This document shows positions 22,865 through 55,067 of a DNA stretch of 64,000 bases, in pieces (within the stretch, counting starts at the first letter, position 1; each line of letters begins with the position of its first letter). A program made the translations under genes and the position numbers. The notes beneath the pieces were generated by a model that had not been told where the DNA came from, searched no databases, and saw nothing but the letters and a program-made list of their open reading frames with translations. The DNA is from an uncultured Bacilli bacterium (GTDB lineage: Bacteria > Bacillota_I > Bacilli_A > RFN20 > CAG-826): positions 104,864-168,863 of the forward strand of contig CALVYH010000002.1 of NCBI GenBank assembly GCA_944372115.1, written 5' to 3'.

Positions 22865-25800
22865 TTGAGGATGAAAAATAAAGGATTACTTGTATTTTGT
22901 GCTTCTATATTTGCTTTTTCTTTTGCTTTATATACAAAAAAAGAAAATCCAAATAAAAAAGATTTAGATACAAATATTGTTGTCAGAATTAAAGATAGTG
23001 AATCAATTGATAAAGACGAAATGACTCGTCGTTTTTTTGTTGAATTAACAAATAATATTTCGTTTAACTATCGTAAAGTTGATGAAATAAATGGTGTTTT
23101 TAATTTTATATGTTTAAAAGTTAATAGTAGTGATATTGAAAAAATTAATTCTTTATCAACCGTTGAATATGCTTATGAAGAATTTGAATATTATTTTGAT
23201 CCTAATGACCCAACATATAATTATTTAGGGAAAAATGAAATATTGATTACCAATTATAGTGAAAATGAAATGAATAAGGGCGAAGAGATAAAAGATGGAG
23301 AAAATACTATTGTCGCTATTTTAGATAGTGCATTAAATTATGATCACGAAGCTTTCCAAAATATTAATTCATCTTCAATCCGCTATACTTCAAATGATAT
23401 TGCTACTTTAGCAAATGATAGTGATTTTAATGGAAAAAATTATAAAAGAATTAATGATAAAATTCCTTTTAGTTATGATTATTGTAATGACGATAACGAT
23501 GTAAAAGCTAAAGATACTCATGGAAGCCATGTTTCTTCTTTATCAATTGGAAATGGTAGATATAAAGGCATTGCTCCTCAATCTCAATTAGCGTTTATGA
23601 AAGTTTTTAACGATTATGGAGGAGGGTGTACTTCAATCGTTTATTTAAAAGCTTTAGAAGATGCTTATTTACTCGATGTTGATGCTGTAAATATGTCTTT
23701 TGGAAGTGCTTTAAATTATACAAAAGATGCTACTGATAAAGCGGTAGATGATATATTAAATGCTTTAAGAGAAAAAGGGACCCAAGTTTTTATTGCTGCT
23801 GGAAATGATGGAAGAGATGACTTTGTTGGTTCAAATTATGAATATTCTTTAACTTCATCGGTGGAAACTGGTGTTATGGGGAATTTGGCTTTAAACGAAG
23901 ATTCAATTACGGTAGCTAATTCTACTTTAAGTGATGATGTTTCAAACGTTTATGGTTTGATTGATAATATAAGATCTATTCAACTTATTGATAGAATAGT
24001 TGATTCAGTTGGACTAGAAGAAGGAGCAAATGATTATCATATTACCGATTTTCCTAATGAATATAGATTTTCTTCCTTGATTGGAGAAGGAACTTATGAA
24101 TATGTTTTAGTTCCTAATAAGGGAGCAGACAAAGATTATAAAAATATTAATGTAAAAAATAAGATTGCAGTAGTTGAAAGAGGAGAACTTCCTTTTACTG
24201 CTAAAATTTATTATGCAATTAAAAATGGTGCGTCTGGTTTAATTATTTATAATCAAAAAAGCGACACTAATTTACCTCAATTTTCTTTTAAAATCGATGA
24301 TGAGACATTAGAAAATTACCCAGGAATACCTACAACAATAGATGAATATGGCGATAGAATATTTGACTTATCTTATATTAATATCCCTGTTGCAATCGTA
24401 ACTTATGAAGCAGGAAAGAGATTAAATGAAGCTTCTAATAAAGAAATTAGTTTTTTTCATGAAGAAATGTCTGGTTCATCTTCTTTAGGAGCTAATGCCG
24501 ATTTATCTTTAAAACCAGATTTAGCTGCTCCAGGAACAAATGTTTATGGTGCTTATAGTTATTATAAACCAAGTGGATCTCCTACAAGTGGTAACTATTA
24601 TTTAAATGACGCCTATTATTTTTTAAGTGGAACATCTATGGCTTCACCAAACTTAATGGGTGCTTATATTTCATTATTATCTTCTTATAATATTGAAAAT
24701 AGTTCTTCAAGAGAAGCAGCAGCAAAGAATATAAGAAACAAAATTTTCTCAAATACAACTTTATTAAAAGATGAATTTGGCACTTTTATTTCGCCAAGAA
24801 GACAAGGGAATGGATTAATAAACGTTGATGCTACATATAATTCTTCATCTTATCTTTCATATAATGATAAAAATCAAATGGAATTAGGAAATTCATATAC
24901 GATAAGAAATGGTATTTTTAATGAGGAAGTTACTTTAATTGAAGAAGAAACATCTCATAATTATAAAATAACGTTAAATATCATGGCTCCAAAAATCATT
25001 AATGATAAGTTTAAAGATAAAGACGTTGAACTTATTAATAGTGATGATGTTTTATTAGAATCTAAAGTTATTTCTACTTCATATCAAAGTAAAGTTGGTG
25101 AAAATAAGATAAAAATTAATGAAATTATTTCTTCTTCATCAAGAGAATATCTAGATAGATTTGAAAATGGCACATATATTGAAGGATATTTAGTTTTTGA
25201 AAGCGAAGAAAATAGTTTAAATATGCCTTTTTTAGGTTTTTATGGAGATTATAATTCCTTAAAACCATATGAAGATTTTTCTTTTGAAAAAGATTCAAAT
25301 AAAGTATATGAATCCGATATTATGGATGATTATTTAAGAGAAAATTATGGTTTAGTCAATGCTTATACAGGTTCTTATTTTTTAATCGGAGATAATGAAA
25401 AGTATTATATTCGTAATATTTTACCTTCTACTTTCTCATTGATTAAGCAATATAAATATATGGAATATATTTATGATGAAGAAAATGAAATTTATCATAT
25501 TTATACTGGCGAATATCCTGATTCAAAAGGTTTAATTATTCAATTATTCATGTTAAGAAGCGTTGTTGATAATGAAGTCACTTTATTTGATAGTAATAAT
25601 AACGTAATTGAGACTTATTATTTTAAAGATTCAGCTCCTTATAATGATTTAGCACATGAATTACATAGAAGTTATATTTTGCAACAAAATAGTTATCTAA
25701 TGAATAATGAATATTTTACTCATCGAAGTTATTGTTATATTCCTCTTGTTTATGATGATGGGTATGGGGATTATTTATATCCTGATGGAACTTATAATTT

Positions 25801-26524
25801 TTTATTTGAGTTCGAACTTGTAAATGGTGAAAAGTTTACTTCTAAATATGTCTTGCATTTAGGTGAAAGTTTTAAATCGATTCCATCAATTTATGATATT
25901 ACTTTATATAACAATATCTTAAGAGTTTATGTTAGAGAACAGGATAGTTATAAAGTTTTAATTAATAATGCAGCTAATAATTCTATTAAAATTTCTAACA
26001 TAGGTGTTTATAGAAGCTATTTTGAAATCAATTTAAATGAATATTCTTCAAGTGATTTATTTATTTCGGTTATTAATAATGATAAAAATTCAACTTTTGC
26101 TAAATATTTTATTGATGAAAATGTTATTATTGCCGGAAACGAAGTTTCTTCATCAATAAAATTAGAAAAAGAAGAAAGAAATAATAAATCCTATTATTTA
26201 AAATTGGTCGATTATAATGACGAGTTAATCAATTTTACAAATGAGGTTTTATATGGGTTATTACTAGATGGTTTATTTATAAATGTTGAAGCTGTTGATG
26301 GAGAATCAACTGCTGAGATAAATTATCAAGCCGCAACAAGTGAAAATGATTTAATTCGTTTTAATACTTCATATTCAGAATTTTTAATTAATAATAGGTT
26401 AGAAAGTGATGGATTATTTAATTTATTCCTTCCTTCTATAATAGTCGTTTCTGTTATCGCAGGCGGTGTTTTAATTGTTGGAACAATAGGAATTATTAAA
26501 CACGCATTAAAAAAGAGAAAATAA
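22865..26524 (+). CDS. Cell-surface subtilisin-like serine protease (S8 family) with PA domain, signal peptide and C-terminal transmembrane anchor
   Basis: Catalytic triad contexts are AILDSALNYDH (Asp), HGSHVSS (His) and GTSMASP (Ser). A PA-domain insert NKIAVVERGELPFTAKIYYAIKNGASGLIIYN is present. The N-terminal signal is MRMKNKGLLVFCASIFAFSFALY. The C-terminal anchor is a hydrophobic helix plus KKRK, with no LPXTG. Confidence 0.85.
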   Translation: MRMKNKGLLVFCASIFAFSFALYTKKENPNKKDLDTNIVVRIKDSESIDKDEMTRRFFVELTNNISFNYRKVDEINGVFNFICLKVNSSDIEKINSLSTVEYAYEEFEYYFDPNDPTYNYLGKNEILITNYSENEMNKGEEIKDGENTIVAILDSALNYDHEAFQNINSSSIRYTSNDIATLANDSDFNGKNYKRINDKIPFSYDYCNDDNDVKAKDTHGSHVSSLSIGNGRYKGIAPQSQLAFMKVFNDYGGGCTSIVYLKALEDAYLLDVDAVNMSFGSALNYTKDATDKAVDDILNALREKGTQVFIAAGNDGRDDFVGSNYEYSLTSSVETGVMGNLALNEDSITVANSTLSDDVSNVYGLIDNIRSIQLIDRIVDSVGLEEGANDYHITDFPNEYRFSSLIGEGTYEYVLVPNKGADKDYKNINVKNKIAVVERGELPFTAKIYYAIKNGASGLIIYNQKSDTNLPQFSFKIDDETLENYPGIPTTIDEYGDRIFDLSYINIPVAIVTYEAGKRLNEASNKEISFFHEEMSGSSSLGANADLSLKPDLAAPGTNVYGAYSYYKPSGSPTSGNYYLNDAYYFLSGTSMASPNLMGAYISLLSSYNIENSSSREAAAKNIRNKIFSNTTLLKDEFGTFISPRRQGNGLINVDATYNSSSYLSYNDKNQMELGNSYTIRNGIFNEEVTLIEEETSHNYKITLNIMAPKIINDKFKDKDVELINSDDVLLESKVISTSYQSKVGENKIKINEIISSSSREYLDRFENGTYIEGYLVFESEENSLNMPFLGFYGDYNSLKPYEDFSFEKDSNKVYESDIMDDYLRENYGLVNAYTGSYFLIGDNEKYYIRNILPSTFSLIKQYKYMEYIYDEENEIYHIYTGEYPDSKGLIIQLFMLRSVVDNEVTLFDSNNNVIETYYFKDSAPYNDLAHELHRSYILQQNSYLMNNEYFTHRSYCYIPLVYDDGYGDYLYPDGTYNFLFEFELVNGEKFTSKYVLHLGESFKSIPSIYDITLYNNILRVYVREQDSYKVLINNAANNSIKISNIGVYRSYFEINLNEYSSSDLFISVINNDKNSTFAKYFIDENVIIAGNEVSSSIKLEKEERNNKSYYLKLVDYNDELINFTNEVLYGLLLDGLFINVEAVDGESTAEINYQAATSENDLIRFNTSYSEFLINNRLESDGLFNLFLPSIIVVSVIAGGVLIVGTIGIIKHALKKRK

Positions 26525-30898: not shown

Positions 30899-31182
30899 AT
30901 ACTCCCTCGATAAAAAAATATAAAAAATATTTAATTATTTTATTTTTATTAAGTCAAATAAATACCAATTATTTAAAATAAAAATAATACTATCTTAATA
31001 AGTTTAAGGGTATCTTAATAAAAGTAATATTAATTATAAAAATACATATATATTATAAAAATGGGATTTTTATAATAAATGGAAACCCTACCCGTACGTA
31101 GTACAAGAACGGAAATTTTTTAAAATTTATGCTAATTTTTGAGAAAATTAATATAAAATTAATATAGTCGGAGGAAAGAAAC

Positions 31183-31527
31183 ATGCCTTATATTGAATTA
31201 AATACGAATATAGAAATAAGCAAAGAATTAAAAAATGAAGTTAAATCAAAACTAGGTAATTTAATTAAAGAATTACCGGGAAAAAGCGAAAACTGGTTAA
31301 TGGTAAACATTAACGATAAAACTTCTTTATATTTTAAAGGAAGTGATAAGGGTGCAATCATGATAAAAGTCTTAATTTATGGTGATTCTTATTCTAGCCA
31401 AGTTTTAGATAATTTCACTTCATTATTGACTTCATATTTACAAAAAGAACTAGATATTGATGGTTCAAGAATATATATTTCTTATTTCTTTACTAAAAAT
31501 TGGGGATTTAATGGTTCAAATTTCTAA
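31183..31527 (+). CDS. MIF/D-dopachrome tautomerase-like protein (tautomerase superfamily)
   Basis: 114 aa beginning MPYIELNTN, giving Pro1 after Met removal. This parallels MIF MPMFIVNTN. The C-terminus RIYISYFFTKNWGFNGSNF parallels MIF [22 protein letters not shown]. Confidence 0.7.
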   Translation: MPYIELNTNIEISKELKNEVKSKLGNLIKELPGKSENWLMVNINDKTSLYFKGSDKGAIMIKVLIYGDSYSSQVLDNFTSLLTSYLQKELDIDGSRIYISYFFTKNWGFNGSNF

Positions 31528-31584
31528 ATTATATAAAAAAATACTTGCTAAATTATAAAATTCTATTAATATATTGATTTGTAA

Positions 31585-31800
31585 AGATTGATAGAGGCGC
31601 GATTACGATTAGTAGTTAATGGAGGAGACGTCCGATGAAGTTAATGAAAGGCAAAATCGCCGAAACAAATTCAAGGTATTGGATTTGATTGGGCTATGGG
31701 AGAACATCCTTTAGACTCCTAGTTTATCTAGAGGCGCTATCGGTGTGAATCTTCTTAATGAAAATTATAGATTGCATCGAGCGATGCAATCTTTTATTTT
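31585..31800 (+). promoter_or_regulatory. Lysine riboswitch (L-box) with terminator-type expression platform, upstream of an amino-acid ABC transporter operon
   Basis: The 5' AGAGGCGCG, ...TTAGTAG...GGAGGAG..., ATCGCCGAAAC, and 3' CTAGAGGCGCTATCGGTGTGAAT segments match the conserved L-box pattern. In B. subtilis lysC the equivalents are AGAGGTGCG, AGAGTA, GTCGCCGAAG and GGAGGGCTATCTCG. A terminator hairpin attgcatcg agc gatgcaat plus a T-run sits at about 31770-31799, directly before the transporter RBS. Confidence 0.6.
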
Positions 31801-31814
31801 AAAGGAGATTTAAA

Positions 31815-32699
31815 ATGAATAGAAAATTATTAATTTTTGGTGTCGCAATTTCTTTATATGGCACCGTATTAACTTCTTGTGGAAATAGTGGTTTAACTGT
31901 TTCTAACGATGTTTTAGTTATTGGTATGGAAGCAAATTATCAACCATTTAACTGGACAACATATACTTCAAGTGAATACACCATTCCTATTTATGGAACT
32001 AATGAATACGCTGATGGATATGATGTTGCTATTGCTAAATATTTAAGCGATGAAACTGGTAAAGATGTTTATATCAAAAGAATTGTTTGGGATAGTTTAA
32101 TACCTTCACTTCAACAAGATGAGGTCAATTTAGTTTTAGCTGGAATGACCGATACGCCTGAAAGAAGAAAATCAATTGATTTTACTGATCCATATTTAAC
32201 TAGTGACCTAGCTTTTTTAATTAGAACTGAAGATATGCCTGAAGGTTATGGCACAAAAGAAAACCCTGCTAGTTATGAACAATTACTTGAATTATTTGAT
32301 GGTCAAACTTTAGTTTGCCAAGCAAATGTTGTCGGCGATGGATTTATTGATACTTATTTTGTAAATAATGATCAAGGAAAAACTATTAGACATGCTAATC
32401 CACAAAGTACTTATCCTTCTGCAGCAAACGAAGTTAAAGGTGGAGTTTCTTTTGCAATGCCAGCTGAACTCCCTGTTATCGAAACAATGACAAATCTTGG
32501 TGGATTAAGTGTTCTTTATTGTGATTATAAGAGTTTTTTAAGCGAAGAAGACTTAAACGGCCTTTCAGTTTCAATCGGAGTTAAAAAAGGAAATGCAGAA
32601 TTAGCTGATGAAATTAATGCCGCTTTATCAAAGTTAAGCGATGAAGAAAGAAATAAAATGATGGGGGATGCAGCTTCTAGAAGCGCAGAAAACGCATAA
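31815..32699 (+). CDS. Polar amino-acid ABC transporter substrate-binding lipoprotein (likely lysine-related, given the riboswitch)
   Basis: Lipoprotein signal MNRKLLIFGVAISLYGTVLTSC with a lipobox, and a type-2 periplasmic-binding-protein fold pattern. Confidence 0.8.
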   Translation: MNRKLLIFGVAISLYGTVLTSCGNSGLTVSNDVLVIGMEANYQPFNWTTYTSSEYTIPIYGTNEYADGYDVAIAKYLSDETGKDVYIKRIVWDSLIPSLQQDEVNLVLAGMTDTPERRKSIDFTDPYLTSDLAFLIRTEDMPEGYGTKENPASYEQLLELFDGQTLVCQANVVGDGFIDTYFVNNDQGKTIRHANPQSTYPSAANEVKGGVSFAMPAELPVIETMTNLGGLSVLYCDYKSFLSEEDLNGLSVSIGVKKGNAELADEINAALSKLSDEERNKMMGDAASRSAENA

Positions 32700-33484
32700 T
32701 GATAGATTTTGAGAAGATGCGGAATGTTTTAGGACAAAATTTTACTTTTATCATTTATGCAATTATTACAACAGTAATCTTAGCTATAGTTGGTACTTTT
32801 GTAGGATTATTTTTAGGGATTTTCTTAGCATATGGAAAAAATTTAAAAAGTAAGGAAATCGATAATGGAGTTGTTAAAACATTTAAATATATTATAAAAG
32901 GTATCTGCAGTATTTATTCGACTGTTTTACGTGGTACACCAATGATGGTTCAAGCTTTAATTTTTAAGTTTGGTAGCCAAGCATTAGGATTAAATTGGGG
33001 AGATATTTATTTTCAAGGAGAAATAAACAATATTTTTAATGGATGGTTTTTTGCTGGTTTGATTGTAATTACTCTTAATACAGCTGCTTATATGGGCGAA
33101 ATTGTTAGGAGCGGTCTTAATGGAGTTGAACAAGGACAAATTGAAGGCGCAAGAAGTTTAGGGATGAGTGCTTCAAGAACTAGTTTTTCAATTATTCTTC
33201 CACAAGCTTTAAGAAATTCACTTCCTACTATTGGTAACGAACTTATTGTCAATATTAAAGACTCATCCGTTTTAAATGTTATCAGTGTCACCGAGCTCTT
33301 CTATAGGATGGATTTAATTGCAGGTAAAAACTTTGCTTATATGGAATGTTATATTATTGCTGCAATTATTTATTTAGTCTTAACTCTTATAGCAACAGGA
33401 GTTTTAAAACTTATAGAGAAGAAAATGGATGGAGTTAAGTTCTCATTTAACCCATTTAGATTTAGGAGAAGTTTTAAAATATGA
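32699..33484 (+). CDS. Amino-acid ABC transporter permease (His/Glu/Gln/Arg/opine family)
   Basis: Multiple transmembrane helices. An EAA-like loop [29 protein letters not shown] is present. Confidence 0.85.
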
Positions 33485-34485
33485 GTGAATTATTATTAAA
33501 AATTGAAAATATTGCAAAGTTTTTTGGTCCATTAAAAGTTTTAAAAGATATCTCTTTAGATGTTAATAAAGGTGATGTTATTGCAATTATTGGGCCATCA
33601 GGAAGTGGAAAATCAACATTTTTAAGATGCTTAAACCTATTAGAAACTCCTACACGTGGTAGATTAGAGTTTAAGGGTGAAGAGTATTTTAATATTTCTA
33701 AATGTAAAGACGATTTTGTTGATTACGAAAGATACGTTCATGATTATGACGCATATAAAGAATTGTATATTGAAAAGGAAGACAACTATGCAATTGTATT
33801 AAACAAATATTTAGAAGATAAAAAGAATAATAGGGAGTTAAAACCAGAAATAAGAGAAAAGAAAAAAGAATTTAACTATGTAAAAAAACATCCCGTTTTA
33901 AAAGAAGATTATTTTGACAAAGAGTCTTATAAAGCTGCAATTAAAAAAAATCCAAACGTTATTATTCCTTCTAAAAAAATTAACGAAATTAGAAGTAAGA
34001 TGGGCATGGTTTTCCAATCGTTTAATTTATTTAATAATTATGATGTTTTATCTAATTGTACATTGGCGCAAACTAAAGTTTTAAAAAGAAAATATAACGA
34101 AGCTAAAGAAATTGCTATTCAACATCTTACTCAAGTAAATATGCAAGATAGAATGAATTATAAGATTAGAGAGTTGAGCGGTGGGCAAAAACAAAGAGTA
34201 GCGATTGCTAGATCACTATGTATGAATCCAGAAATATTACTTTTTGATGAACCAACTTCAGCGTTAGATCCAGAAATGGTTGGAGAGGTATTGGAAGTCA
34301 TGAAAAAACTAGCCAACCAAGGAATGACGATGATTGTTGTCACTCACGAAATGAATTTTGCAAGAAATGTTTCAAATAAAGTAGTTTTTATGGAAAACGG
34401 ATACATTGTTGAAAGTGGAACTCCTGAACAAATATTCGATTTCCCAAAAGAAGAGAGAACCAAAGAATTTTTAAGAATGAAATAA
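33481..34485 (+). CDS. Amino-acid ABC transporter ATP-binding protein carrying an insertion of about 95 aa
   Basis: Walker [10 protein letters not shown], signature [15 protein letters not shown] and Walker [12 protein letters not shown] are present. An extra Lys/Glu-rich segment lies between Walker A and the Q-loop. Confidence 0.9.
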
Positions 34486-42217: not shown

Positions 42218-42294
42218 TGGGGCGAAATACCGGGATCGAACCGGTGAATGCTTGGTTCACAGCCAAGTGAGTTAACCGCTTCTCCAATTTCGCC
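42218..42294 (-). tRNA. tRNA-His (anticodon GTG) with encoded G-1 and CCA
   Basis: The reverse complement reads G-GCGAAAT...CTTGG CTGTGAA CCAAG...GGTTCGATCCCGG...ATTTCGC-C-CCA. Anticodon loop CUGUGAA gives GUG. An extra 5' G pairs with discriminator C73. Confidence 0.85.
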
Positions 42295-42365: not shown

Positions 42366-43292
42366 TCAACGAATTCTTTCTTTAATAATATCATCTTTTT
42401 CAATTTTTCCAATCAATAAAGATGAATTATCATCATGATTTTTATAATTTGTTAAAACTTCATTTTCATTATAATTAGCATAACAATATTTACATAAAGA
42501 TAAACAAGAATTATAAGATCCTATATCAACCATTTGAACACAGTTACATGTAAATTTATTATCTTTTCTAAATGTTTGCTTTTTTAATTTTATCTCTTTT
42601 TCATTCATATTTAATGTTTTTAAAACAAAATCTTTAGATACACATGCCCCTTTATTAAAACCATATTTTATTAAATCCTCTTTTTCACCACATGTGAAGA
42701 TATATATATTATAAAGATGAGCAATGCTAGAAAAATTTTCTCCAATTATTTTATAATCATTTTCATTAAAATCTATTAAATGAAGAAATTTATTATTTTT
42801 AATAGTATTTTTATAATAATCAACAAAAGAAATAACTATATTTTCGGTTGAATCTTTTATTAATGGAAGTAGTTTTTTAAAAGCTTTTATATGAAAAGAA
42901 GTTGTGTAACGATTATTTTTTAATATTGGATCATAACGAATAAAGATATTTTCCTTTCCATATTTTTTTGCTATAAGGTTTATATCTTCAATAATCATTT
43001 TTTTCTTTTTTGCGATTATTGGTTCAATATCTTCATTATAAGGTGTTAATGTTAAATGAAAAACAAAAGGTATATCGTTTAATTTATTTTTTATTTCATC
43101 TAAATATGGAAGAAGAGGGTGAATGTTTTTTGAACAAAAAACTATCATATCCACATTTTTAAAATATATTCTTGAAATAAGTTTAGGATTAAATGGATTT
43201 CTTGAATCGATAAAACCTTCTTTTACTCGATTAAAAAACCATTTTGGATAATAACTTGCAATATCGCTTCTCCCGCTGACAAATAGTATCAT
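42366..43292 (-). CDS. DUF1848-like protein with C-terminal cysteine cluster (possible Fe-S)
   Basis: The N-terminus MILFVSGRSDIASYYPKWFFNRVKEGFIDSRNPFNP resembles the DUF1848 N-terminal signature. A C-terminal cluster CNC...C..C..CKYC is present. Confidence 0.4.
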   Translation of the reverse strand: MILFVSGRSDIASYYPKWFFNRVKEGFIDSRNPFNPKLISRIYFKNVDMIVFCSKNIHPLLPYLDEIKNKLNDIPFVFHLTLTPYNEDIEPIIAKKKKMIIEDINLIAKKYGKENIFIRYDPILKNNRYTTSFHIKAFKKLLPLIKDSTENIVISFVDYYKNTIKNNKFLHLIDFNENDYKIIGENFSSIAHLYNIYIFTCGEKEDLIKYGFNKGACVSKDFVLKTLNMNEKEIKLKKQTFRKDNKFTCNCVQMVDIGSYNSCLSLCKYCYANYNENEVLTNYKNHDDNSSLLIGKIEKDDIIKERIR

Positions 43293-51772: not shown

Positions 51773-52483
51773 ATGCTTTCAAAAACTGAAACAACGCATT
51801 TAAATAATCATGAAAAATATTTAAGCAATAGAAAGAAAGTCGCTTTAAATGCATTAACATCTGTTTCTTATTGCGAATTCTATTATTTTTTAAATACTTT
51901 TAGAGATCAACATGATTTTATTAAGATTAATAATAATATTGATTTCTTGATTAATTTGTTTGATAAATATTCTGTTTCTGAAAATAAAATATTTCATTTT
52001 AAATATAAAAATTATAATTTTGTTGTTCCAACAAAATACTTTATTAAAACAAATGAATTAACATTAGTCATATTAAATAAGCACGTTTTATCAGAAAATT
52101 ATGCTTTTATATGTTTATGTTTATTTATTGAAAATGGAATTTTACCTGATGGAATTTATTATCTTGATAACGACGAGAAATATCATTCTTTGAATGGACT
52201 TACTAATTTAGATAAAGATTTTTCAAATATAAACCCAAATATATTATCAACGCTTGTTTATTGTGTAAATAAATTAAAGAAAAATAAGAGAACAAATAAA
52301 ATAAATACAAAATCTAAAGGCTTTTATTTTAGTCAAATCGAAGCTGGTAAAATACTTGATAGGTTAATTAAAACTATTTTAAAAGGCAAATTTAAGAAAG
52401 AAACAAGCCAAAAATGTAAATATTGTAAGATAAGAAATAAATGTAATACTTTTTTAGAAGATGAAACATTTAATTTATATTAA
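51773..52483 (+). CDS. Cas4-like/PD-(D/E)xK nuclease-domain protein with Fe-S cysteine motif (standalone)
   Basis: An N-terminal Cys (VSYCEF) is present. Putative nuclease acidic residues lie in ILPDG and YYLDNDEK. A C-terminal CKYCKIRNKC (C-x2-C-x5-C) follows the Cas4/AddB/Dna2 pattern. Confidence 0.45.
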   Translation: MLSKTETTHLNNHEKYLSNRKKVALNALTSVSYCEFYYFLNTFRDQHDFIKINNNIDFLINLFDKYSVSENKIFHFKYKNYNFVVPTKYFIKTNELTLVILNKHVLSENYAFICLCLFIENGILPDGIYYLDNDEKYHSLNGLTNLDKDFSNINPNILSTLVYCVNKLKKNKRTNKINTKSKGFYFSQIEAGKILDRLIKTILKGKFKKETSQKCKYCKIRNKCNTFLEDETFNLY

Positions 52484-53876
52484 TGATAAAAATAGATATA
52501 TTTTAGAAAATTTAAGTGAAGTGGATTTATTAAATCCATTTTATTTTGACGTTGTTATTAAAAATGAGGACGATTTATTAATTTTTTTTGATCGAATCAA
52601 TCTTGATTTATTAAAAGATTTTGAAAAAAACAAAGATTACGAAGCCCCTTTATCAATTGCTTTAAATCTTTCAAATTCATTTATTAATGATAATAAAAAA
52701 ATTTTTATAAAGAAAAAGAATGTAATTATTGAAGAAGAGGAACAATTTTTATTTTCGTTAGTTAGAACTTTAATAAATAATCAAAAGAATTCCTCTAGAA
52801 TTATTAGTATACGTAATATAAATCGTTTATTAAAAACTCGTGATTATAAAGGTTTAATTGATAATTTATCTTTAATTAATAAGAAAAATTTTCAAAACAA
52901 ACCTTTTTCATTTGTGATTTTATTTTTAAATCGTTTAGATGTTTTAAAATATTTAAAAATAAATTCGTTACCAGCTTTTAAATATAGTTCTACAAATGTA
53001 ATTAATACAAAGATTTTAACTTCATTAAATGATAATGAAACTTATTTAGAAATGTTTTTAAAAGCGGTTTCAAATAATAAATTTAGTTTTAATTTTTATA
53101 AAACCATTAATAATATTGATATTAAAAATGATAATTATGATAATTTTTTAAATTTAATAATTAAAGGGATACACTTTCAAATTGATTGTTTTATTTTTGA
53201 AGATGAAGATGATTTTAATGAATTTATTAATAATATGAATTTAATTAATAAGAAGGTTTTTTATTATTCTCCTTTAAAAAAGAAATTATTAAACTATTTA
53301 TTAAAAGTTTTAAAAGTAATTTTAAATAAAGATGATAAAGAAGATTTAGATTTTTTAAGATTATTATCAAAAGATAAAATTTTAAAATTTTTAAAAAACT
53401 TTCATTCTTTCAATGCCTATGATTTTTTAAATAAGCTTAACGAAGAAGTAAATTTATTTAATTTGTATTCCGATACAGATGATAAAATGTTATTAAATAC
53501 TTTGTTAACTTTTTTAAAGAAAAAAGCTCTAAATATTGAAAGATTTTATTTTTTTATTACATTTTTACTAGCAATAAGATTTAAAAAAGAAATTAATGAA
53601 GTAGCGAATATTAAAGCAATAAAATTAGATGATTTGCATTTACTTAATTTAAATAATTTAATAGTTGGATTTATCAGTACAAAAAAGAAGAAAAATTATA
53701 ATAATGAAGTTATGTATAAAAGCATCATTTTAAAAAATTATATATTTTTTAACGAAATTTTAAAAAAATCTAAATTAATTTATTTTTATCAATATGATAG
53801 TTATTCTAGTATTGAATTATTGGCTTCACATTTAGACGAAGTTTCACTATTTTTCGATTTAGTTAAATATTTATAG
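52461..53876 (+). CDS. Hypothetical protein, 471 aa, Leu/Asn/Lys-rich, no recognisable domain
   Basis: Long uninterrupted ORF in a very AT-rich stretch. It overlaps the upstream gene by 23 nt in another frame. No nucleotide-binding or catalytic motif was found by eye. Confidence 0.45.
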   Translation: MKHLIYINDKNRYILENLSEVDLLNPFYFDVVIKNEDDLLIFFDRINLDLLKDFEKNKDYEAPLSIALNLSNSFINDNKKIFIKKKNVIIEEEEQFLFSLVRTLINNQKNSSRIISIRNINRLLKTRDYKGLIDNLSLINKKNFQNKPFSFVILFLNRLDVLKYLKINSLPAFKYSSTNVINTKILTSLNDNETYLEMFLKAVSNNKFSFNFYKTINNIDIKNDNYDNFLNLIIKGIHFQIDCFIFEDEDDFNEFINNMNLINKKVFYYSPLKKKLLNYLLKVLKVILNKDDKEDLDFLRLLSKDKILKFLKNFHSFNAYDFLNKLNEEVNLFNLYSDTDDKMLLNTLLTFLKKKALNIERFYFFITFLLAIRFKKEINEVANIKAIKLDDLHLLNLNNLIVGFISTKKKKNYNNEVMYKSIILKNYIFFNEILKKSKLIYFYQYDSYSSIELLASHLDEVSLFFDLVKYL

Positions 53877-53912
53877 TGTTTAAAAAATTAAAAGATATTA
53901 AAATAAATAAGG

Positions 53913-55067
53913 ATGGAAGTTAAAAAAGTAAATAAAACTCAATTATCAAATATTTTAAAAGGTCTAAATTCTTCTAAAGACGTTTTTCTTTTTGTTGACC
54001 AAATTTATGAAATTTATGATTGTGTTTGCGAAGGGATAGAAGAAGTAATGAAAATTACAGAATTTAAAGAATATACTTACGTAAATCCAGTCGTAATTAT
54101 TTTATATATTGTTAATGAACTAAATTTTTATTTTAAAAGCCGTGGTTTTGATAATGTTAAAATAGCTGAATTTTTGAATACAGATAGTTTTGTTGAATTT
54201 ATATCCTCAATAGTTTGCGATAAATATTTAACAAACGAACAATTAAATTATAAATCCCCAGCATTTTTAAATAAATTTAATCCTCAAATTTCGACTTTAT
54301 CTTTATATTTTAATTTTTGTCTTAATATTTTAAATAAATCATATAAATTGAATAAATATGATGCATTAGTTAAAGACATGCTTAAAAATTCTTTTTCCTT
54401 AGGTCAATGCATTGAAAATCTTTTGATTAACGCTTTCGATGTCGAGGCTTTTTCTACCTGGAGAACAATGCATGAAAATGAATGCATACTATATTGTCTT
54501 GTATTAAATGGGAAAGATACTTTTGACTCTTATTTTAAACATATTCAATATTCTTTAGCTTATCGTGGCCAAATTAAAAATAAAGAAAAAACCGATAAAG
54601 TATTTGAAGAAATTAAATCACAAATGAAGGAATATAACTTGAAAAGTAAAGATATGAAGAAATTTATTGAATATGGATATCTATTTTCAATAAAAAACAA
54701 AGAATTTAATGTCGATTTTAAACTTAATTTTAGAGATGGAGTTGAAGCGATGGCGGGATTAAAATCATATTCAAAAATATATGAATTATCTAGCGAAATT
54801 GCACATTCTTCACCATTATTAATTTATTCGAATCGTGAATATTATTTTAATATTACTTTATTAAATTTATATGAAACATTTTTTAGATTAGAAAAAGTTT
54901 TCTATACTTTTTATAAATCAGTATCAAAAAAAGATGAAGTCGAGCAATATGAAACTTTACAAAAAATTTATATTAATCAACTTCATCAAATTCATAATGG
55001 TTTAGCTGCTTTATTTAAAGATAGATTTTTTAAGATTGAACATCTCGATAGCAAGAGCCACCTATAA
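53913..55067 (+). CDS. Hypothetical protein, 384 aa, no recognisable domain
   Basis: Long ORF with an RBS-like aaggatggaag upstream. Its 3' end overlaps the convergent kinase gene by about 38 nt. Confidence 0.45.
   Translation: MEVKKVNKTQLSNILKGLNSSKDVFLFVDQIYEIYDCVCEGIEEVMKITEFKEYTYVNPVVIILYIVNELNFYFKSRGFDNVKIAEFLNTDSFVEFISSIVCDKYLTNEQLNYKSPAFLNKFNPQISTLSLYFNFCLNILNKSYKLNKYDALVKDMLKNSFSLGQCIENLLINAFDVEAFSTWRTMHENECILYCLVLNGKDTFDSYFKHIQYSLAYRGQIKNKEKTDKVFEEIKSQMKEYNLKSKDMKKFIEYGYLFSIKNKEFNVDFKLNFRDGVEAMAGLKSYSKIYELSSEIAHSSPLLIYSNREYYFNITLLNLYETFFRLEKVFYTFYKSVSKKDEVEQYETLQKIYINQLHQIHNGLAALFKDRFFKIEHLDSKSHL

Follow-up and report, generated by a model that had tools for sequence, protein, structure and literature searches.

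A bacterial member of the MIF subgroup of the tautomerase superfamily on the chromosome of a gut Bacilli bacterium

The stretch of DNA that we analyzed, referred to here as the window, comprises 64,000 nucleotides of core chromosome with a GC content of 28.2%. Reading along it, an L10 leader is followed by open reading frames the size of rpoB and rpoC, a subtilase of 1219 amino acids, and galM, galT, and galK; then come hpt, on the opposite strand, the gene for a macrophage migration inhibitory factor (MIF) family protein that is the subject of this work, a lysine riboswitch with an amino-acid ABC transporter, and rpsL, rpsG, and open reading frames the size of fusA and tuf. Genes for glycerol utilisation and the ATP synthase operon lie farther on. 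The EF-Tu encoded in the window falls into a 90%-identity cluster together with EF-Tu of Candidatus Onthovivens sp., a genus of the Bacillota (Bacilli). The features in and around the MIF gene are as follows, in window coordinates:

31139-31168, forward strand: promoter-like TTGAGA-18-TATAGT, weak, its -10 hexamer ending 1 nt before the Shine-Dalgarno sequence
31170-31175, forward strand: Shine-Dalgarno sequence GGAGGA, 7 nt 5' of the MIF ATG, read from the sequence
31183-31527, forward strand: MIF-family gene, ATG to TAA, 114 amino acids
31186-31188, forward strand: codon of Pro-2 (the catalytic Pro-1 once Met is removed), in a Met-Pro pair found in 166 of 166 full-length relatives
31282-31284, forward strand: codon of Lys-34 (Lys-32 of human MIF), placed by alignment at the GK(P) motif of the human protein, with Lys in 164 of 166 relatives
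31474-31476, forward strand: codon of Tyr-98 (Tyr-95 of human MIF) by alignment, Tyr in 158 and Phe in 7 of 166 relatives
31584-31792, forward strand: lysine riboswitch (RF00168, 82.7 bits), directly 3' of the MIF gene
31769-31792, forward strand: terminator hairpin of the riboswitch expression platform, the first 3' of the MIF gene
31815-34485, forward strand: three-gene amino-acid ABC transporter (SBP_bac_3, permease, ATPase), led by the lysine riboswitch

The extent of the MIF gene is given by the list of open reading frames together with the sequence, and its start codon is fixed by the Shine-Dalgarno sequence 7 nt upstream. The 114-residue translation begins with MPYIELNTN and ends with RIYISYFFTKNWGFNGSNF. 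Two antisense open reading frames of 43 and 57 amino acids overlap the gene and are unsupported. At 0.24, the GC content of the gene is close to that of the flanking genes (0.25-0.29).

We do not take the promoter-like sequence upstream of the gene to be its promoter: a scan found 6 such sites against 13.2 expected in shuffled sequences, and the -10 hexamer abuts the Shine-Dalgarno sequence. The real promoter must fall within the divergent spacer between hpt and the MIF gene (30899-31182, 284 bp, about 20% GC). Downstream, a scan for terminators from the MIF stop codon to the lysine riboswitch found no terminator-like structure, so MIF transcripts may end at the riboswitch terminator, which would then serve both.

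The original prediction had assigned this gene to the MIF family from its sequence, and the assignment is borne out by family models and solved structures alike. The protein matches Pfam family PF01187 (MIF) over its full length (residues 2-113, aligned to positions 1-112 of the 114-position profile), with an E-value of 2.9e-10 and a score of 40.9 bits; the gathering score is 22. MIF is the sole Pfam family at E<=10, with no match to PF01361 (4-OT) or to CHMI. A scan of the window protein against NCBIfam returned no family, which is uninformative because PGAP names such proteins from the Pfam model. Among its relatives, PF01187 is precomputed for nearly all, and a few carry a secondary match to PF01361. 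The 4-OT and CHMI proteins belong to the same superfamily and likewise place an N-terminal catalytic proline on beta-alpha-beta units; in contrast to the single unit of about 62 residues that defines 4-OT, the window protein is a 114-residue chain with two units.

Searches against solved structures gave the same answer. A phmmer search of all PDB sequences yielded 105 matches, almost all of them MIFs, MIF-like proteins, or L-dopachrome isomerases; the few that remain are designed cage proteins, scored as MIF-like. The best match was to Leishmania major MIF2 (3fwt, 1.2e-12), followed by Trichomonas vaginalis MIF (8ur2, 4.3e-11), with weaker matches to the Prochlorococcus protein (2xcz, 2.3e-6) and human MIF (about 8e-3). 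In a pairwise BLASTP comparison with human MIF (human sequence identical to 1gif_A), identity is 25% over the full length, with an E-value of 3e-10. An AlphaFold2 single-chain model, built from an input alignment of 33 sequences, has a mean pLDDT of 96.8 and a pTM of 0.88, and its secondary structure is two successive beta-alpha-beta units (strand 2-8, helix 14-30, strand 40-44; strand 59-66, helix 72-90, strand 97-104). Comparing this model with the PDB using Foldseek, we obtained L. major MIF1 (3fwu) as the best match, with a TM-score of 0.92 and an rmsd of 1.5 A; next came L. major MIF2, T. vaginalis MIF, Arabidopsis MDL1, Prochlorococcus MIF, human MIF, and D-dopachrome tautomerase (D-DT). 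All of these have a Foldseek probability of 1.00, and the top 50 matches consist of MIF, D-DT, or designed cage proteins matching as MIF-like. The parallels to eukaryotic MIF that had been noted at the N- and C-termini align column for column. Best matches to 4-OT or CHMI tautomerases, or to proteins that are not tautomerases, had been named as evidence that would speak against the assignment; the Pfam, PDB, and fold searches returned none. The resemblance to MIF is far beyond chance, and the gene product is a bacterial member of the MIF subgroup of the tautomerase superfamily.

The solved structures most like the window protein, in both sequence and fold, are L. major MIF1 and MIF2 (3fwu, 3fwt, 3b64) and T. 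vaginalis MIF (8ur2), with TM-scores of 0.88-0.92 and rmsd values of 1.5-1.8 A. Like it, they have a GKPED/GKSEN-type motif following the catalytic Lys, and their C-terminus is of the WG(F/W)NG(S/T)NF type. Identity is only 26-31%, however, and these proteins come from eukaryotic parasites and are discussed as virulence factors directed at the host, whereas the window protein clusters with bacteria in the tree described below. The GKPED/GKSEN-type motif is shared by the kinetoplastid MIFs and the Firmicutes set used for that tree (alignment including P0236, P0239, P0245, P0247, and P0256). The Prochlorococcus marinus MIF (2xcz) is alike in length (about 114 residues), Met-Pro start, two beta-alpha-beta units, and equivalents of Lys-32 and Tyr-95; it too lacks a signal peptide and is encoded by a bacterial chromosomal gene. 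In contrast, it is about 24% identical to the window protein, with a TM-score of 0.77, a weaker match than to the protist MIFs, and the window protein belongs to a gut-Firmicutes subfamily marked by the motif GKSExWLM.

Bacterial members of the MIF family had been described in the original prediction as uncommon, and this view does not hold. We scanned one genome per GTDB species for a single 9-residue motif, which matched at least 600 stretches, and confirmed relatives in at least 594 GTDB species genomes, mostly Ruminococcus and Oscillospiraceae along with uncultured gut Bacilli. The best 80 of these at least 594 come from Ruminococcus, Oscillospiraceae, other Clostridia, Eubacterium uniforme, and uncultured gut Bacilli or 'Mollicutes'. 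When 1.84 billion representatives of 50% identity clusters were searched exhaustively with phmmer, 767 clusters passed a cutoff of E<=1e-3, of which 177 reached E<=1e-10 and 4 reached E<=1e-30. The third-ranking match of this search, P0037 (6128 amino acids, rich in Thr and Asn, 125.9 bits), is an artefact of repeat summing and no relative of MIF; it contains 25 identical 118-residue repeats, each scoring 4.5 bits against residues 33-69 of the window protein. Homologues also occur in free-living bacteria, including Prochlorococcus, Synechococcus, and Thioalkalivibrio.

Existing names tell the same story. A public entry reads 'Macrophage migration inhibitory factor (MIF) [Ruminococcaceae bacterium FB2012]', close relatives are named 'phenylpyruvate tautomerase MIF-related protein [Eubacteriales bacterium]' at NCBI, and relatives at JGI are named 'phenylpyruvate tautomerase PptA'; the 'phenylpyruvate tautomerase' names are derived from homology. 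Bacterial MIFs are documented in the literature (PMC5818174; PMC6826473), and an analysis of the tautomerase superfamily ascribes to the MIF subgroup 'significant representation from bacterial organisms' (PMC5818174). The window gene is thus an ordinary member of a documented bacterial MIF branch that can already be annotated. The relatives form a coherent and highly conserved MIF subfamily that is widespread in Firmicutes of the gut and rumen.

A second suspicion raised at the outset was that such genes are acquired horizontally, and the phylogeny, gene order, and base composition all point elsewhere. A neighbor-joining tree (Kimura distances, 500 bootstraps) was built from 71 bacterial sequences, namely the window protein and its 70 nearest Firmicutes homologues, and 15 eukaryotic sequences, a thin sampling of 8 vertebrate and 6 kinetoplastid MIFs and that of Trichomonas. 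Eukaryotes and bacteria are split in 377 of 500 bootstraps, and the window protein, which the original prediction had proposed to place in either a eukaryote-like or a bacterial clade, groups with the bacteria; it lies in a clade of uncultured Bacilli with L001, L002, L003, and L011 in 425 of 500. Its identity to the 70 bacterial homologues is 38-77%, compared with 25-31% to any eukaryotic MIF sampled. Given how few eukaryotes it includes, the tree would exclude a recent eukaryotic origin only, and would leave the deep history of the family aside.

The setting of the gene is conserved as well. L001, L002, and L011, which represent three other species, have exactly the gene order of the window: subtilase-galM-galT-galK-hpt (reverse strand)-MIF-ABC transporter-rpsL-rpsG-fusA. 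Their MIF proteins show 77%, 71%, and 53% identity, respectively, to that of the window. The lysine riboswitch is found at the same place in all three. This shared gene order and riboswitch position in four species argues for vertical inheritance within the lineage. In addition, the identical MIF protein occurs on at least 23 independent metagenome contigs with the same neighbours, and we found no mobile-element genes flanking the MIF gene.

Recent transfer from a eukaryote, either the host or a gut protist, would fit the fact that the top PDB matches by sequence are to protist MIFs (3fwt, 1.2e-12, against 2.3e-6 for the cyanobacterial 2xcz), and also the greater similarity of kinetoplastid MIFs to the Firmicutes set (mean identity 31.7% in the alignment used for the tree) than to vertebrate MIFs (26.1%). 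Against this, bacterial homologues are closer to the window protein than the eukaryotic MIFs sampled, at least 177 clusters score better than E 1e-10, synteny is kept in four species, composition is ordinary, nothing mobile lies nearby, and the tree separates eukaryotes from bacteria. We reject transfer from eukaryote to bacterium on the grounds of the identity hierarchy, synteny, composition, and the tree, and consider it extremely unlikely.

To relate the window protein to characterized family members, we aligned it with the MIFs of human and T. vaginalis and with L. major MIF2 and mapped its residues. In the numbering of mature human MIF, the correspondence is:

Pro-1: window P2
Lys-32: window K34
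Tyr-36: window W38, the aromatic side chain being kept
Ile-64: window Y66
Tyr-95: window Y98
Asn-97: window S100

We counted conservation in 166 full-length relatives, aligned with MAFFT. It is highest in the columns of the initial Met-Pro (166/166), K34 (164/166), M40, W107 (161/166), G53, and Y98 (158/166). Pro-2 is also unchanged in two further alignments, one of which includes human and protist MIFs. Adjoining the catalytic Lys is the near-invariant motif GKSExWLM of the subfamily, in which E36 is present in 94%. That conservation peaks at Pro-1, Lys, and Tyr indicates that purifying selection acts on the catalytic apparatus, and the strong constraint on this triad supports the idea that the enzymatic function is ancestral and has been maintained outside eukaryotes.

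Human MIF and D-DT resemble the window protein in fold, length, Pro-1, Lys-32, Tyr-95, and terminal motifs. Human MIF differs from it not only in overall sequence but also in the pocket and near the C-terminus, where the window protein has a 2-residue deletion before the last strand. Two of the five classical pocket residues of human MIF are replaced, Ile-64 by Tyr-66 and Asn-97 by Ser-100. Across the 166 relatives, the column of Tyr-66 contains Y, F, or L and position 100 is variable, mostly K, S, T, A, Q, or E. These two positions are not universal in the MIF family, and Ile-64 acts through its backbone; in the alignment with human MIF, the L. major and T. vaginalis proteins differ there too. 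The substitutions therefore limit any claim that the pocket is the same as that of human MIF, and not the claim of family membership; they do mean that the substrate may not be that of human MIF.

Inspection of the sequence revealed no hydrophobic N-terminal signal peptide in the window protein. A cleaved signal peptide would be incompatible with a catalytic Pro-1, which supports a cytoplasmic location. Taking these observations together, we favor the reading that the gene encodes a vertically inherited, chromosomal, cytoplasmic protein of the MIF subgroup in a low-GC gut member of the Bacillota close to Candidatus Onthovivens, and we put the probability of this reading at about 0.78. The most likely role of the protein is that of a tautomerase in the cytoplasm, and not that of a mimic acting on immunity. 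By analogy with the rest of the family, methionine aminopeptidase would remove Met-1 and expose Pro-1, and the protein would assemble into a homotrimer whose three active sites lie where the subunits meet. The secondary amine of Pro-1, with its low pKa, would act as the general base in the keto-enol tautomerisation of an alpha-keto acid. Tautomerase activity of the phenylpyruvate or 4-hydroxyphenylpyruvate type is established for eukaryotic MIFs. The Prochlorococcus homologue, too, is reported to have tautomerase activity (Wasiel et al. 2010, as cited in PMC6826473). Judging from the Prochlorococcus and eukaryotic proteins, the substrate here is probably also an aromatic alpha-keto acid such as phenylpyruvate or 4-hydroxyphenylpyruvate.

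The divergence in the pocket also bears on whether this chemistry is the right one. A protein with the MIF fold and Pro-1 could instead act on another enol or keto compound or an unsaturated acid, could work as a decarboxylase or dehalogenase or in a hydratase-like manner, or could have a non-catalytic role. The differences at the equivalents of Ile-64 and Asn-97, the variability of position 100 in the family, and the subfamily-specific GKSExWLM motif, which puts Glu-36 beside the catalytic Lys, would all be compatible with such a departure, as would the fact that the tautomerase superfamily carries out diverse reactions on one scaffold, with most of its members uncharacterised (PMC5818174). 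However, the window protein keeps Pro-1, Lys-32, and Tyr-95, the L. major MIFs with the GKPED/GKSEN-type motif are described as tautomerase-active homologues (PMC4407349), and nothing in our analysis points to any specific alternative reaction. We regard a different chemistry as plausible, though unlikely, and tautomerisation of a phenylpyruvate-type substrate remains the preferred reading. In the literature that we searched, we found no experimental work on the GKSExWLM subfamily of gut Firmicutes.

The original prediction had also allowed for an immunomodulatory role in a host-associated organism, and the sequence features expected of a MIF-type cytokine give this little support: the window protein shows neither a signal peptide nor the CALC and pseudo-ELR motifs of human MIF. 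The human CALC oxidoreductase motif (Cys57-X-X-Cys60) aligns to A-I-M-I, and a CxxC of any kind occurs in only 8 of 165 relatives. Arg-11 and Asp-44, the pseudo-ELR residues that we take to bind CXCR2 in human MIF, align to Ile and Lys. We weighed these features against the possibility that the protein is released by the gut bacterium as a mimic of a host cytokine, binding CD74 or CXCR and modulating immunity. Neither a signal peptide nor a secretion-system context accompanies the gene; eukaryotic MIFs are likewise leaderless. The organism and nearly all of its relatives come from metagenomes of the animal gut or rumen, the closest solved structures by sequence are the parasite MIFs of Leishmania and Trichomonas, and effects on the host are reported for parasite MIFs whose identity to human MIF is similarly low (PMC6826473). 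In contrast, conservation follows the pattern of an enzyme active site, the neighbours of the gene are housekeeping genes, and its homologues extend to the free-living Prochlorococcus, Synechococcus, and Thioalkalivibrio. A host-directed cytokine mimic is on this evidence very improbable.

We think it equally doubtful, to a very high degree, that the GKSExWLM MIFs of gut Firmicutes are released by lysis or in vesicles and engage host CD74 or CXCR in that way. If this were true, commensals of the Ruminococcus, Oscillospiraceae, and gut Bacilli groups would be an unrecognised and abundant source of MIF-like signals in the gut. A cytoplasmic tautomerase is the reading that we retain.

We also asked what the neighbourhood of the gene says about its pathway. 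Open reading frames were called in 81 loci and clustered by all-against-all BLASTP. No conserved neighbour emerged as a pathway clue, for even the top neighbour cluster is present in no more than 10 of these loci. Neighbours that do recur are unrelated: a protein of the Met_gamma_lyase family, a Cel124 dockerin cellulase, a Pyr_redox_2 pyridine nucleotide-disulphide oxidoreductase, Lit, YgbB (IspF), and a GTPase of the HflX type. These are unrelated housekeeping genes, and we rejected them as a functional clue. A link between MIF and lysine transport was likewise rejected: the riboswitch and ABC transporter adjoin the MIF gene in the four syntenic Bacilli only, and not in the rest of the family. 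We treat the adjacency to the lysine riboswitch and ABC operon as specific to this lineage and not as a functional link.

Several other features of the window are recorded here in their own right. In the ABC transporter downstream of the MIF gene, the ATPase (33481-34485, forward strand, 334 amino acids) matches the ABC_tran profile in two separate stretches, with a Lys/Glu-rich insertion of about 100 residues at roughly residues 60-165; its homologues in L001, L002, and L011 are 334-341 amino acids long. The subtilase upstream (22865-26524, forward strand, 1219 amino acids) carries a PA domain and lies between the rpoC-sized open reading frame and the gal genes, a position kept in L001, L002, and L011. 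Between a glycerol-kinase-like gene and a gene of the uridine-kinase family, at 51773-55067 on the forward strand, are open reading frames of 236, 471, and 384 amino acids with no PADLOC match and no Pfam match except DUF5677 on the third; the trio may be a small accessory insertion. Finally, a DUF1848 protein (42366-43292, reverse strand, 260.7 bits) is encoded beside a tRNA (42221-42293), and it also matches the PADLOC model RTasDUF1848 (DRT-associated) with an E-value of 5e-35.
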